Shown here piece by piece: positions 3,439 to 20,226 of a stretch of DNA of 64,000 nucleotides (positions are counted from its first letter, which is position 1; each line of letters begins with the position of its first letter). A model generated the notes under the pieces. It made no database searches and was not told the DNA's origin. It was given only the letters and a program-made list of their open reading frames with translations. Origin of the DNA: Clostridia bacterium (GTDB lineage Bacteria > Bacillota > Clostridia > TANB77 > CAG-508); the NCBI GenBank assembly GCA_017404545.1, contig JAFRCC010000022.1, positions 8,750 through 72,749 on the forward strand. Direction: 5' to 3'. The position numbers and the translations under genes were made by a program.

Positions 3439-3690
3439 ATACCTATTATAGTTTATTTAAAGAGGACCTAATAAATTAGATCCCCCTTTATATTATTTTT
3501 TCACCAATTCATTTATATTCCGCAAATAGGGATGCGATTAACATTTTTTCATTCATAAATTTATGTTTCGCATATGAAGCTGCGAATAACATGTTTCGTA
3601 AGATTGCTCTTACTACTAATAATAGTGTATACAAATTTTAGTGATAAATCAATAGTTTTAGAAGATTATCGTATGACATAATTCAACAAT
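3439..3690. repeat. Intergenic segment duplicated at 20005..20226; ends in the junction motif ATCGTATGACATAATTCAACA
   Basis: aagaggacctaataaattagatccccc...tatattccgcaaata...gttaacatttttt is shared with 20030-20130. The motif copy lies at 3668-3688. Confidence 0.6.
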
Positions 3691-3696
3691 AATTAT

Positions 3697-4716
3697 CTAT
3701 TTTTCCTTATATTCGTTATATAACCTACCTCTATAGCTAATTTTCCCAACCTTAGCCAATCTACCAACAATAAAGCTCATTGGTATTTTAAATCTCTTTG
3801 ATACGGATAATAAACTATCTGTCTTAATATCACTTAAAACTATATCCCACACTCCATCATTCACCATAGTTTTTATTGCAAAATCATCAGCTCTTTGCTC
3901 TATTTTATCATCCCCATCAATAATTGTTTTGCTCTTTGCTTTATTGTAATCGCTCTTACAATGACCAAGTTCATGAAATAACTCAAAATAAAATGAATCT
4001 TTTGCCGAATAGTTTTTAGTTATATATATAGCCGGAGTATTTAGTTTAACTCTAAAGCAACCTCTTACTTTTGTTCCTGGTAAAGTTTTCTCGCATACAA
4101 AGATAATACCATACTTATTTAATATCTCTTGTATTTTATTTATATCTAACCCCTCTTTATATGCATATTCTTTTAGCTCATATATTAAATCATCAAATTT
4201 AGAGCTTTCATATTCTCCTACATGTTGGCTTTCTGAAATCTTATCACAATGAGCAATCCATAAAGCAAGCTTATTACTATCTTCACCGCTCTTTTTAAAT
4301 AAAACATTTTCCATTAGACTATTGTTCGTTTCGAAATCTTTAACTTTCAAAAAGTCTAAAATATCTATGCTATTTTGTATAGTATTCGTTTCATCTTTAA
4401 AATCCACCCATTTTAATTTCTTTAGTTCGTTTAAATGGTATTCTTCTTTTAACATCCTCTTAATCTCATCTTCAGACCCATATTGTTTAAGTAATTTATT
4501 TTGTATGATATTAGCATTTTCAATTGAAACAATTAACTTCGATGAAATGCCAGTTAATCTTTCAATAGTAGCAGCCATCTCCAATGTAATACTTGTTTTA
4601 CCATTAATTATTTCATTCATATGTTTTTGCGTAACACCAAGTCTACCCGCAAACTCACTTTGAGAAATATTATAATATTCAAGATAATCTTTTAAATACT
4701 CTCCAAAATGTACCAT
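3697..4716 (-). CDS. XRE-family HTH fused to an ImmA/IrrE (M78-type) zinc metallopeptidase domain
   Basis: N-terminal HTH ISQSEFAGRLGVTQKHMNEIINGKTSITLEMAATIERLTG. C-terminal HEXXH motif ELFHELGHC. Confidence 0.65.
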   Translation of the reverse strand: MVHFGEYLKDYLEYYNISQSEFAGRLGVTQKHMNEIINGKTSITLEMAATIERLTGISSKLIVSIENANIIQNKLLKQYGSEDEIKRMLKEEYHLNELKKLKWVDFKDETNTIQNSIDILDFLKVKDFETNNSLMENVLFKKSGEDSNKLALWIAHCDKISESQHVGEYESSKFDDLIYELKEYAYKEGLDINKIQEILNKYGIIFVCEKTLPGTKVRGCFRVKLNTPAIYITKNYSAKDSFYFELFHELGHCKSDYNKAKSKTIIDGDDKIEQRADDFAIKTMVNDGVWDIVLSDIKTDSLLSVSKRFKIPMSFIVGRLAKVGKISYRGRLYNEYKEK

Positions 4717-4803
4717 TCTTCTCCCTCCTATCCATCACCATAGTGTTTATCATCTATAGATATAAATTCAAGTTCATAAACCTCTTCTAATTCATATGGG
4801 TAT

Positions 4804-4992
4804 TCATTTACTGGTTTCATCACTAATCTTAATTTTTGATTCAACCTTGCTGTATAATACTCTTTTAGAGCCCCGCTTCTTCTTTTCAATATTATAAATA
4901 ATATGTAAGCTATCTTGCATAACTTCTTTCATACTTTCAGAAGATATAAGAAACTGCTCTATTTTCTCTAGTAGAATCATTTCTTTATTCAT
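4804..4992 (-). CDS. Small hypothetical protein (62 aa) upstream of the HTH-peptidase gene
   Basis: ORF only. Its position is where a partner gene for the HTH-peptidase would be expected. No motif recognised. Confidence 0.25.
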   Translation of the reverse strand: MNKEMILLEKIEQFLISSESMKEVMQDSLHIIYNIEKKKRGSKRVLYSKVESKIKISDETSK

Positions 4993-5121
4993 ATGTTTAT
5001 TTTTTTATTTAGCTCTGTAATCTTTGGTATATGCTTTTGTTTTTATTATCTTGATCTTTATCACCTCAGCCCTTTAATATATTATAACATTTTAGGTTAT
5101 AATATACAATAATAATTACAA

Positions 5122-5152
5122 TATAGGGGCAATAATATTTATTGCCCCTATA
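5122..5152. terminator. Perfect 14-bp inverted-repeat hairpin, a putative bidirectional terminator
   Basis: tataggggcaataa-tat-ttattgcccctata, flanked by AT-rich runs. Confidence 0.4.
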
Positions 5153-5280
5153 ACATTCATAATTATAAAATATCTCAACCATTATTTCAATCAGAATCGT
5201 ATGATATAATTCGACAAAACCTTATTTCTTAGCGTAAAATATGCATTACTCCATAATTGAAGCAATGCATATTTAGCTTT

Positions 5281-17882: not shown

Positions 17883-17959
17883 ATCCCCCTATTTTTTTTA
17901 TTTTCTATTTCATTAAAAATAAAGAAAATCAAACTCCCTTTAATAAATAATTTATAGAC

Positions 17960-18466
17960 CTATATTTTCCCTTCTGCTATTTTTCTGCACAATGCCACAT
18001 CAATGTCAAACAATTCAGCATCTAATTGTACCTGATTAAAAATTACTTTCTCTTTTTGTATTAACTTGTCTTCAATATTATCCTTTAATTTGTCGTTAGC
18101 ATATTTGCATAAAAAATATCTTACAATCCATTTACGCAACACCAATAAATAATCTCCTGTAGGATCATTGCTTTGTTTTTGACCTACTTTTGGACAAAAC
18201 TTATTATATAATCGTTGATATGTATAAAATCCCGTAATATAAAAATCTGGCTTAGTTGTATATTTCTTATACAATTCCGCAAATACTTGACGCTTATTTA
18301 TCTCATGTTCATCTTGATTTGCTTCTCCGGGCATTATATACTTATTTCTAACATTATCTATCTTGTTTATATCTTTAATGATATCAACATACTCGTTGTC
18401 AGATTTTATGCTATCATTTTTCATAATTATCTCAGTCGCCTTAATATACAAATCTCTACCGTCCAT
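17960..18466 (-). CDS. Hypothetical protein, paralog of 473..940
   Basis: See 473..940. Shared block LVLRKWIVRYF. Confidence 0.5.
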   Translation of the reverse strand: MDGRDLYIKATEIIMKNDSIKSDNEYVDIIKDINKIDNVRNKYIMPGEANQDEHEINKRQVFAELYKKYTTKPDFYITGFYTYQRLYNKFCPKVGQKQSNDPTGDYLLVLRKWIVRYFLCKYANDKLKDNIEDKLIQKEKVIFNQVQLDAELFDIDVALCRKIAEGKI

Positions 18467-18707
18467 ATGATTCCTCCTCGAATTTATATACTTATATTTT
18501 ATACCGATTTATAAATAAATCTGTGGCATTTGCAACAGATTATATTTTGTTGTAAATAAAAAAGCTGAAGCATGCCATAATATCAATTACAACAAGCTTC
18601 AACTTTTTTATAATATTTTTTTGTTGCAAAAACAACAAATTTACTTAACTTAATTGTATTTGCACATTTAAACAATAATAGTTTGTTACCTCTAACCATA
18701 TAATTAC

Positions 18708-19076
18708 TTATGCAACAAACTCAAAAGTATCGGTATTTACCTTTGCTCCACTTCGTTTAAGTAACTCAAATTCGTCATATTGTTCCATTTTCCATGTATC
18801 TAAAATCTCTTTGATATCATTTCTCCTTTTATCTGGTAATCTAGCAGAAAAAGAGGCAAATAATGTTTCACATTCGTATTTCTTATCTAAATCTGGGAAA
18901 GCAATTAATTCACTAAACCCTGACATTTTTGCCATTTTTACGTTTTCTTTAATATACTCAAAATAAAACTTGTCATTTTCTTTATATAATTTACCAATTT
19001 TAAACTGCTTATTATCAAATGGAGATGTCCACATCAAATATACAATATCCATATTCATTTTATCCTCCCCTTTCAA
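18708..19076 (-). CDS. HipS-like protein (HipA N-terminal subdomain homolog) encoded downstream of the kinase core
   Basis: IGKLYKENDKFYFEYIKE and LFASFSARLPDKRR resemble the N-subdomain of E. coli HipA (VGELTKLANGAHTFKYAPEW...FFDNLLPEGPIRQR). Overlaps the kinase gene. Confidence 0.5.
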   Translation of the reverse strand: MKGEDKMNMDIVYLMWTSPFDNKQFKIGKLYKENDKFYFEYIKENVKMAKMSGFSELIAFPDLDKKYECETLFASFSARLPDKRRNDIKEILDTWKMEQYDEFELLKRSGAKVNTDTFEFVA

Positions 19077-19779
19077 ATATACTTACTATTATGTCTTTTC
19101 TTGTAATAATATACCTTAATATTAATTCCTTCATATTGGAGCTAATTATACTTTCATCATATTTTTCCAATATTCTGCTTATACTCTCTTCGTTTATTCT
19201 CTCCTTTATTTTGTTCACTATATTAATAGACATATCATATCGTTCGTCTTTTAAATGCTCTAACAACTTAAAGTGTCTTATCGGTCTTTCATCATTCCAT
19301 CCTACACACGACTTTGACTTTGTATCTAGTAACGCATTAAATCTCATGTTATCTCTTAATATTTCTTCGATATCTTCTTCGTTCACATACGCACATAGTG
19401 ATGAACCATTGTCGTATATAGGGGAAATATCATAATTAATACTTAACTTTTTGTTTATAAATTCAGCATCATATATTAATCCCCAATTACTTGGGTGTCT
19501 ATCACTATTTCCTATAAGAATATCAAATATTAATATATCGTATAACCATATAATATCTTTCCCAAGAAAACTCAATGATTCTTCCAACATTTGTATTGAA
19601 TATTTTCTACCTGTATTGTTATCAATAAGCGAGTCTTTATTGTACCCATAAAAAACAGATTGTATATTCGTAACAAACTCATTCAATGTTTTATTCTTGC
19701 TGTTAATTATATTATAACTCATAGAGCCATATCTTCCGTTTGAATGTTCCAATATCAACATTGGCACATTTAATATCAA
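19060..19779 (-). CDS. HipA-family Ser/Thr kinase core (C-terminal part, probably joined to 19712..19981 by a frameshift)
   Basis: Catalytic loop ILIGNSDRHPSNWGLIY matches the HipA_C pattern liGNtDdHlkNfs. Overlaps the preceding 89-aa ORF by about 68 nt in another frame. Confidence 0.55.
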   Translation of the reverse strand: MILNVPMLILEHSNGRYGSMSYNIINSKNKTLNEFVTNIQSVFYGYNKDSLIDNNTGRKYSIQMLEESLSFLGKDIIWLYDILIFDILIGNSDRHPSNWGLIYDAEFINKKLSINYDISPIYDNGSSLCAYVNEEDIEEILRDNMRFNALLDTKSKSCVGWNDERPIRHFKLLEHLKDERYDMSINIVNKIKERINEESISRILEKYDESIISSNMKELILRYIITRKDIIVSIFERGG

Positions 19780-19981
19780 GTAATTTGGCTATGTCCGTTG
19801 ATAACCTTTCAGCCCAGTATTCCCCGGTAATATTCCCATTTGCTCTAATCTTAGGATATTTAAATATTCCGGAATTTTTGCCATCTGGACTAATAAGCCA
19901 CACTTTATCACTTGCACCAGAACCATACTTTAATTTATCATTATCAATAATCCAATTATCAAAATTCTTAATTTCTATCAT
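19712..19981 (-). CDS. HipA-family kinase, N-terminal fragment with a Gly-rich loop
   Basis: YGSGASDKVWL resembles the HipA/HipT Gly-rich ATP loop (GAQEK). The combined length of about 310 aa is close to HipT-type kinases. Confidence 0.45.
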   Translation of the reverse strand: MIEIKNFDNWIIDNDKLKYGSGASDKVWLISPDGKNSGIFKYPKIRANGNITGEYWAERLSTDIAKLLDIKCANVDIGTFKRKIWLYEL

Positions 19982-20004
19982 ATATTCCCTTCTTGTAATA
20001 ACTA

Positions 20005-20226
20005 TACTTATTATAGTTTATTTTTCTCAAAATTTCAATAACACAAAGAGGACCTAATATATTAGATCCCCCTCATATCATTTTTCCACCTATTCATTTA
20101 TATTCCGCAAATAAGAATGCGGTTAACATTTTTTATAAGATACATACCTTACTACTATAAATAGTATACTTTTTTAGTTATAAAATCAATAGATTTTGAA
20201 TATTATCGTATGACATAATTCGACAT
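20005..20226. repeat. Second copy of the duplicated intergenic segment; junction motif ATCGTATGACATAATTCGACAT at 20205-20226
   Basis: Homologous to 3439-3690 (aagaggacctaatatattagatccccc...tatattccgcaaataagaatgcggttaacatttttt). Confidence 0.6.

Follow-up and report, generated by a model that had tools for sequence, protein, structure and literature searches.

What is the ~21-nt sequence that recurs between the gene modules of an accessory island in an uncultured Clostridia bacterium? The island occupies 1-31 kb of a 64-kb stretch of contig JAFRCC010000022.1 (hereafter the window, numbered from its first base) and is followed by a polysaccharide locus (31-45 kb) and by core genes that include spoIIP (45-64 kb); G+C content is 26-35% in the window and 27-30% in the island. 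A preliminary description of this DNA had offered two ideas: a recombination or integration target that assembled the island module by module, or a regulator-binding site common to the modules. Our analysis favors the second, based on a perfect 0A box in the motif, a fixed and phased distance to a -35/-10 promoter, and recurrence before spoIIA in related organisms. Of the recombination idea, what stands is the set of breakpoints observed at the motif. We place the probability that the motif is a Spo0A operator-promoter junction, in which tandem 0A boxes are predicted to bind Spo0A, at roughly 0.6.

The motif is a tandem repeat confined to the accessory island

Copies were first sought with the degenerate consensus of the preliminary description at ≤3 mismatches, and the expected number was derived from dinucleotide shuffles. 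The 64-kb window yielded six matches to the 21-mer against an expectation of 0.00. Five of these are the copies already described, each with 0-1 mismatch to that consensus and each with the start position given earlier; two of the ends (15558 and 20226) had been placed one base too far. The sixth copy (30231-30251) had not been reported, and a scan with the sense-strand consensus added two copies buried in hairpins (27522-27542 and ~13349-13369). Every copy lies between genes, as had been claimed, and all are located at 3.6-30.3 kb in the accessory island. No copy with ≤5 mismatches was found in the rest of the window, and the 34 kb of polysaccharide and core genes contain none.

Because nearly all genes lie on the minus strand, the motif is best read as its reverse complement, TGTCGAA-TTA-TGTCATA-CGAT. 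The two direct half-sites described as ~10 bp apart are, on this gene-sense strand, TGTCGAA (box A) and TGTCATA (box B), with a start-to-start distance of 10 bp and exactly 3 bp between the boxes in all copies. The tandem pattern TGTCGAANNNTGYMR occurs eight times in the window, compared with 0.03 expected. Box A is TGTCGAA in six of the eight copies, the variants being TGTTGAA and TATCGAA, and the 3' part, ATACGA(T/A), is invariant in seven of the eight and in the spoIIA promoters described below. The motif does mark module boundaries, though at the other end from that proposed: it had been assigned to the 3' boundary of a module, and it lies just past the preceding stop codon and before the promoter of the next module, that is, at a 5' edge. 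The five copies known from the preliminary description are as follows.

3668-3688, minus strand: motif copy TGTTGAATTATGTCATACGAT, 8 nt past the HTH-M78 stop codon (3697); heads a hipBA-like module
5196-5216, minus strand: motif copy TGTCGAATTATATCATACGAT, without an adjacent gene, ~65 nt downstream of a skipping-rope RNA; heads a module of a 62-amino-acid protein and HTH-M78
6350-6370, minus strand: degenerate copy TATCGAATTCTGTCGTACGAT, without an adjacent gene, ~100 nt beyond the terminal CRISPR repeat; heads the Panacea/SocA module
15537-15557, minus strand: motif copy TGTCGAATTATGTCATACGAA, 323 nt past the preceding stop codon; heads a repeat-containing leader and then a HigB-like/HTH module
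20205-20225, minus strand: perfect copy TGTCGAATTATGTCATACGAT, 31 nt past the DUF2806 stop codon; heads a second hipBA-like module, a paralogue of 2644-3688

The copies at 3668 and 20205 are not independent, as both come from one duplicated hipBA-like module. Orthologous copies of the 15537 motif are present in two of the loci and contigs used for comparison, which carry labels beginning with L (here L008 and L024).

The motif matches the layout of paired 0A boxes

The 0A box has the core TGTCGAA, in which Spo0A contacts G2, C4, and G5; C. difficile Spo0A uses the same box and binds upstream of spoIIAA (PMC3485338). At A2c of phages Nf and phi29, Spo0A footprints two imperfect 0A boxes that lie 3 bp apart and abut the core promoter (PMC2731898). 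The layout of the motif, two boxes 3 bp apart upstream of a core promoter, matches the A2c arrangement. Box A is the exact 0A core (7/7 positions) in most copies, and the hairpin forms described below have two perfect boxes separated by 3 bp. The window contains 10 perfect TGTCGAA cores against 3.5 expected, nine of them inside the elements. Because the window encodes SpoIIP (50854-52044), the lineage has sporulation genes.

Like the Spo0A operators of Bacillus and Clostridium (abrB, spoIIA, spoIIE, spoIIG, spo0A, and sigH), the element combines the TGTCGAA core with direct tandem boxes, lies upstream of or overlapping a core promoter, is present at a spoIIA promoter (in related organisms), and belongs to a host lineage with sporulation genes. 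Unlike them, it is an extended 21-mer that varies unusually little, and its second half, TGTCATACGAT, deviates from the 0A core. It also has a rigid 5-nt gap to the -35 hexamer and mostly toxin-antitoxin or defense modules as putative targets, and some copies are folded into terminators. The phage phi29/Nf sites (A2c, A2b, and C2) resemble the window copies in having two imperfect boxes 3 bp apart that abut the strong sigma-A promoter of a selfish or accessory unit, and the TGTtGAA variant of phage Nf is also found in one window copy. However, the phage sites repress lytic promoters and block replication, trapping the phage in the spore (PMC2731898), whereas the window units are chromosomal modules.

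The motif stands at a phased distance from sigma-A-type promoters

Each of the five listed copies precedes a sigma-A-type -35/-10 pair with a 17-nt spacer, at the following positions.

After copy 3668, minus strand: putative -35 TTGATT (3652-3647) and -10 TACACT (3629-3624), gap 15 nt
After copy 5196, minus strand: -35 TTGAAA (5190-5185) and -10 TATAAT (5167-5162), gap 5 nt, 11/12 promoter match
After copy 6350, minus strand: -35 TTGATT (6334-6329) and -10 TATAAT (6311-6306), gap 15 nt
After copy 15537, minus strand: -35 TTGACT (15510-15505) and -10 TAAAAT (15487-15482), gap 26 nt
After copy 20205, minus strand: -35 TTGATT (20189-20184) and -10 TACTAT (20166-20161), gap 15 nt

The gaps of 5, 15, 15, 15, and 26 nt are roughly whole helical turns apart and hold the site on one face of the helix, as upstream activator sites do. 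We then tallied promoters across loci, pooling the window with the genome and metagenome scans and keeping the non-redundant sites that had a scorable promoter (n = 22). A -35 hexamer exactly 5 nt after the motif together with a 17-nt spacer was found at 10 of these sites, where the chance is ~1 in 45 per site, and several further sites fail only the strict -10 rule that we used. In unrelated loci of other low-GC Clostridia, a gap other than 5 nt is rare. The -35, spacer, and -10 sequences vary between loci and are therefore not one copied promoter. We also considered the motif itself as a -10 or alternative-sigma promoter and rejected this, as neither a ComX cin-box (TACGAATA), a sigma-H RnnGAAT element, nor a plus-strand extended -10 is conserved across copies.

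Several modules have a repeat-containing leader. In the hipBA-like modules, the ~150-300 nt after the motif promoter contain a hairpin and repeats of 48-67-nt units (3321-3625 and 19982-20160, minus strand). In the 20205 module, a second, stronger promoter (20038-20010, 11/12 match) precedes the protein genes, and the first may make a short RNA. The transcript predicted from the 15557 element (15260-15480, minus strand) contains two 54-nt tandem repeats and then a strong terminator. The same leader occurs in L008 (1262-1548) and L024 (155-438) before a PBECR4 nuclease gene, in place of which the window has HigB-like and HTH genes; leader plus PBECR4 resembles a type III toxin-antitoxin layout of repeat RNA, terminator, and endoribonuclease. 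The leaders had no Rfam match to known RNAs, even at a permissive threshold.

The motif recurs before spoIIA in related organisms

The exact 20-mer was scanned in species-representative genomes (596 Gb), metagenome contigs, and viral contigs. The species-representative scan returned 18 loci, about the chance expectation for a 20-mer in 596 Gb, and the viral scan a single match. Hits in high-GC genomes lie in unrelated sequence without a consistently spaced promoter (L018 excepted), whereas those in low-GC Clostridia and a family of hits in Lachnospiraceae show the same motif-promoter geometry; only the latter two groups were used, as they share this geometry. The full 20-mer is confined to a few uncultured lineages.

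In two metagenome hits (L041 and L049), the 20-mer is flanked on one side by a gene for a dacF-like penicillin-binding protein and on the other by a series encoding a STAS protein (SpoIIAA-like), a SigF-like sigma factor, spoVAC, spoVAD, and spoVAE. This series is the spoIIA-spoVA neighborhood, and spoIIA is a canonical, textbook Spo0A-dependent operon; these hits are the strongest independent support for the Spo0A reading. Orthologous spoIIA loci (L052-L055) were then fetched via homologues of the STAS protein. Two of them (L052 and L053) retain TGTCGAA-N3-TGTnAnn-CGAT-TGTT-TTGACA and have another perfect TGTCGAA between the -35 and the -10, and the other two (L054 and L055) retain the proximal box only. 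The motif is also kept, at a gap of 5, in the L037 orthologue of the window's HTH-M78 module (71% nucleotide identity), whose flanks have diverged.

Two observations on these loci stand apart from the operator question. In the spoIIA-like operons (L041 3361-4381, L049, and L052-L055), the STAS gene is followed directly by the SigF-like gene, with no spoIIAB kinase/anti-sigma gene between them. In Lachnospiraceae (L004 4989-5120; L010, L012, L013, L021, L022, and others), the 20-mer usually follows efp and stands 5 nt before a promoter that has a DUF5688 gene downstream; L010 and L048 have an upstream flank other than efp. The 17-nt spacer of the Lachnospiraceae promoter holds a terminator hairpin (AAGCCTTGCA...TGCAAGGCTTTTTT), making this another terminator-in-promoter junction with the same candidate operator. 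We considered these loci as an integrative and conjugative element (ICE) and rejected this, the upstream gene being efp.

Three copies are folded into terminator hairpins

The preliminary description had noted a TTCGACAT-TATTCGACA tail beside three hairpins. The tail is real, and the link is closer than described: the motif itself forms the 5' arm of each hairpin, and the tail adds a further box in 10-bp phase. The three forms are as follows.

27488-27552, minus strand: hairpin form with an extra box TGTCGAA (27552-27546), TGTCGAAACATGCAATACGAT (27542-27522), -35 TTGCAT (27516-27511), a spacer complementary to box A, a T-run, and -10 CATAAT (27493-27488); -34.1 kcal/mol; terminator of a 518-amino-acid gene, heading the Hypoth_Ymh module
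30197-30260, minus strand: hairpin form with a GTCGAA box, TGTCGAAATATGCAATACGAT (30251-30231), -35 TTGCAC (30225-30220), and a T-run; -23.4 kcal/mol; between an FrhB_C fragment and a GT2 gene
13315-13378, minus strand: divergent hairpin form with GTCGAATAATGTCGAAATATGCAA, a loop, TTGCAT (13343-13338), GTTTCGGC, a T-run, and TATGTT (13320-13315); -23.4 kcal/mol; between a 105-amino-acid gene and the trans-activating CRISPR RNA (tracrRNA)/cas9 locus

From 27552 to 27488, the order is box, box A, ATGCAAT, loop, ATTGCAT, GTTTCGACA, T-run, and CATAAT. The 3' arm consists of the -35 hexamer (TTGCAT, 5 nt after CGAT) and the first part of the 17-nt spacer. In the stem, the promoter spacer is the partner of box A and the -35 hexamer that of box B. 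With TGCAATA in place of TGTCATA, box B has become complementary to the -35. The stems are near-perfect (14-16 bp, at most one mismatch), and the predicted RNAs have z-scores of -5.7 to -8.4 and end in T6-T7; the plain copies do not fold. The hairpin copies have the features of intrinsic terminators, namely, a stable stem-loop, a U-run, and a location 5-22 nt past a stop codon (measured from the extra upstream box), and their gap to the -35 is 5 nt. They contain two or three perfect TGTCGAA boxes in 10-bp phase, and on the plus strand TGTCGAA occurs only within two of them (27502 and 30211). Similar hairpins are present in the related contigs L008, L015, L030, L033, and L034, and a BLAST search of the hairpin element against plasmids and phages gave no match. 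For the module that follows, the hairpin DNA would supply operator and promoter; for the module before it, the same DNA would be the terminator.

A model for the junction

We propose that the tandem 0A operator would bind a dimer of phosphorylated Spo0A (Spo0A~P) on one face of the helix, upstream of a sigma-A-type promoter whose -35 lies 5, 15, or 26 nt from the operator's 3' end. The operator-promoter unit would be the first element of each toxin-antitoxin or defense module, and the motif would look like a module boundary because each module begins with such a unit. Spo0A~P would then tie module expression to stationary phase or entry into sporulation. Activation is favored over repression because of the phased spacing and an architecture that matches the promoter of spoIIA. 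The boxes of three copies have acquired complementarity to the promoter spacer and -35, and RNA read through them from the upstream gene would form a strong intrinsic terminator. Recurring as it does between modules, the shared 20-80 bp sequence could also serve as a homology patch for module exchange, deletion, and duplication.

Several points weigh against this proposal. Box B (TGTCATA or TGCAATA) matches the 0A core at only 5/7 and 4/7 positions and lacks G5, and the ACGA that follows it is conserved as strongly as box A, which a canonical 0A box leaves unexplained. The spoIIA evidence comes from related organisms, not from the present genome; among the species-representative genomes scanned, the well-studied ones of Clostridium and Bacillus lack the exact 20-mer; and spo0A was not seen in the 64-kb window. 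Toxin-antitoxin and defense modules are not known Spo0A targets, no report of 0A boxes there was found in the literature searched, and a literature search for the 20-mer and its halves returned nothing relevant. The motif promoters are already near consensus, which is unusual for activator-dependent promoters. In the 3668, 5196, 15537, and 20205 modules, a hairpin and a second promoter separate them from the protein genes, and the motif-proximal promoters of these four modules may drive short RNAs instead of the modules. Finally, promoter-like hexamer pairs as a whole are not enriched in this AT-rich window (136 compared with 139 in shuffles). A nearby promoter match alone therefore means little and only fixed spacing carries weight, and promoter calls were relied on only if backed by spacing or conservation.

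Another regulator as the binding protein

The motif might be the operator of another DNA-binding protein, for example, a response regulator that binds direct repeats in 10-bp phase and controls both spoIIA and the modules, the match to the 0A box being partly coincidence. The ATACGA(T/A) segment, conserved outside the 0A consensus in the window and at spoIIA, would fit such a protein, as would the restriction of the full 20-mer to so few lineages. Direct heptads with a 3-bp spacer are also found in CtsR-type operators, which have the form (A/G)GTCAAA-NAN-(A/G)GTCAAA and overlap the promoters of clp and chaperone genes. We rejected CtsR itself: box A has G, never A, at its fifth position, the site is found upstream of the -35, and no clp genes follow it. 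To our knowledge, none of the consensus sequences that we compared, namely, those of the Pho box (PhoB/PhoP), WalR, CtsR (GGTCAAA), cre, Zur, and the PurBox, fits as well as the 0A box. A regulator encoded by the modules is unlikely, as they carry diverse regulators or none. The perfect box A of most copies, the phased perfect boxes of the hairpin forms, and the standing of spoIIA as a Spo0A target also argue for Spo0A, and we consider a different binding protein unlikely.

Module breakpoints fall at the motif

Sequence comparisons place module breakpoints at the element. The hipBA-like modules at 2644-3688 and 18698-20225 are ~85% identical from the motif onward and unrelated upstream of it. 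Other upstream sequence is followed by the 3668-type leader in L033, which later has two hairpins around a fragment of the 24432 gene and then a GT2 gene, and by the 15537-type leader in L008. In L034, the gene upstream of the 13378 hairpin is followed by the 24432 gene in place of cas9. L024 is a chimera that joins the left flank of copy 5216 (skipping-rope RNA) to the right flank of copy 15557, with the switch in the first half of the motif. The expectation that related contigs would break at the motif is borne out by these four contigs and the paralogues, with one departure: relative to L015, an insertion of Hypoth_Ymh, a 200-amino-acid protein, and reverse transcriptase begins just past the hairpin-promoter. 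Breakpoints are therefore also found at the element's 3' edge. A strain comparison by exact-protein look-up added little, as three window proteins had no record and the other two were found only on a 2.4-kb contig identical to the window.

These breakpoints raise the possibility that a dedicated site-specific recombination system, integron- or Xer/pdif-like, uses the motif as its core site and has built the island cassette by cassette, with the position at promoters being secondary. In keeping with this, paralogous and orthologous homology ends at the motif's 5' edge, elements are packed tightly (5-31 nt from stop codon to element), and arrangements differ widely among contigs ~90% or more identical. 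The L024 junction is that expected from excision between the 15557 and 5216 copies, and variation in the motif tracks the flanks, upstream for its left part and downstream for its right part (in three cases only). However, the search for a cognate recombinase suggested earlier came back negative: Pfam scans of the window, L008, and L015 detected no integrase, recombinase, or transposase, the only related match being a PDDEXK_2 fragment (46055-46438). The plain motif is non-palindromic and unfolded and lacks spacer-flanked inverted arms, and the insertion relative to L015 breaks outside it. A recombination site would also give no rationale for a fixed 5 nt to the -35 in independent promoters (including spoIIA and efp-DUF5688 in organisms that lack such islands). 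We regard such a system as quite improbable.

Comparison with known systems of this kind gives a similar picture. As with integron attC sites and Acinetobacter pdif sites (XerC/D), a short conserved site lies between co-oriented accessory cassettes whose content differs among relatives and breaks at the site; in contrast to these, the window site is conserved in sequence rather than in structure and is tied to promoter geometry. An attC site (an imperfect palindrome R''-L''...L'-R' with an intI gene next to it) was rejected because the plain copies are unfolded, the hairpins have neither extrahelical bases nor a GTTRRRY core, and no integrase was found in the Pfam scans. A Xer dif/pdif site (28 bp, with two 11-bp inverted arms and a 6-bp center) was rejected because the motif consists of direct, not inverted, repeats.

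A simpler account of the breakpoints would be homologous exchange between copies of the 20-80 bp unit, favored by selection that keeps promoter units intact. A combined scheme can also be drawn, in which a Spo0A-gated promoter doubles as the crossover site of an unseen recombination system. The island would then be an integron-like toxin-antitoxin and defense array, expressed and rearranged under sporulation control, and L024 an excised circle or re-integration product; we hold this to be more doubtful still.

The least probable reading, which we consider very improbable, is a repetitive extragenic palindromic (REP)-like terminator family with the plain 21-mers as decayed, functionless half-copies: three copies are indeed strong hairpins with T-runs just past stop codons and have counterparts in the five related contigs named above, but the half-copies are too conserved for neutral remnants (0-1 mismatch in 4/5), are kept in orthologous promoters with diverged flanks (L037 and spoIIA), and hold a fixed distance to the -35 hexamer, and no copies of the 3' arm alone exist. 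The hairpin copies do resemble REP/BOX palindromes and terminator-promoter junctions in being repeated directly past stop codons, where they are predicted to terminate transcription, whereas most window copies are non-palindromic and the hairpins pair a transcription-factor box with the -35 and spacer of the promoter that follows. REP/RAYT elements as such were rejected, as only 3/8 copies are palindromic and Pfam scans found no Y1 (RAYT) transposase in the window.

Content and neighbors of the island

The island contains MqsRA-like, hipBA-like (×2), Panacea/SocA, HTH-M78, and HigB-like modules, together with genes for a KAP NTPase, DUF2806, HNH, DUF4238, a reverse transcriptase, and Hypoth_Ymh. 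It also contains a type II-A CRISPR-Cas9 locus (6474-13260), comprising an array of 36-nt repeats (6474-7302), csn2 (7360-8043), cas2 (8040-8360), cas1 (8350-9222), and cas9 (9207-13127). The plus strand probably encodes a tracrRNA (~13140-13255), with an anti-repeat, a promoter (13110-13138), and a terminator (13236-13253); the hairpin element at 13378 is oriented into the same region and is antisense to the tracrRNA. In L015 (4444-4967), a CRISPR repeat without its first 9 bases is joined directly to the motif, and a full repeat follows ~440 nt on, past an 84-amino-acid open reading frame (ORF). These orphan repeats bracket a gene, and the 8-kb locus has no ORF of ≥100 amino acids able to be a cas gene.

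Skipping-rope RNA (Rfam RF02924) occurs twice in the window, at 5282-5381 (minus strand, 57.5 bits) and at 338-439 (minus strand, 35.1 bits, just below the gathering score). The first copy ends ~65 nt upstream of the motif at 5216, a pairing of RNA and motif that is also seen in L024, and the RNA is present in L008 as well. The 24435-27448 block, which encodes Hypoth_Ymh, a 200-amino-acid ORF, and a reverse transcriptase (RVT_1, 430 amino acids), is probably a defense-type reverse transcriptase module; relative to L015, it is inserted between the hairpin-promoter and a gene for a 226-amino-acid serine-rich membrane protein. Where the island meets the polysaccharide locus (30266-31615), there are gene fragments: an ORF has FrhB_C only (30266-30739), and a short-chain dehydrogenase is split in two (30937-31269 and 31226-31615).

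Implications for sporulating Clostridia

If the Spo0A reading is true, a large share of the toxin-antitoxin and defense modules in these uncultured gut Clostridia would be wired to the sporulation decision, a link between Spo0A and such modules for which the literature searched holds no report. The promoter region beside the CRISPR-Cas9 locus may be included in this control. A portable 60-80 bp unit of operator, promoter, and terminator would travel with each module and supply the homology for shuffling, which would explain the mosaicism of the island without a dedicated recombinase. The invariant 21-mer would also be a ready probe for the Spo0A regulon of lineages that are not yet culturable.

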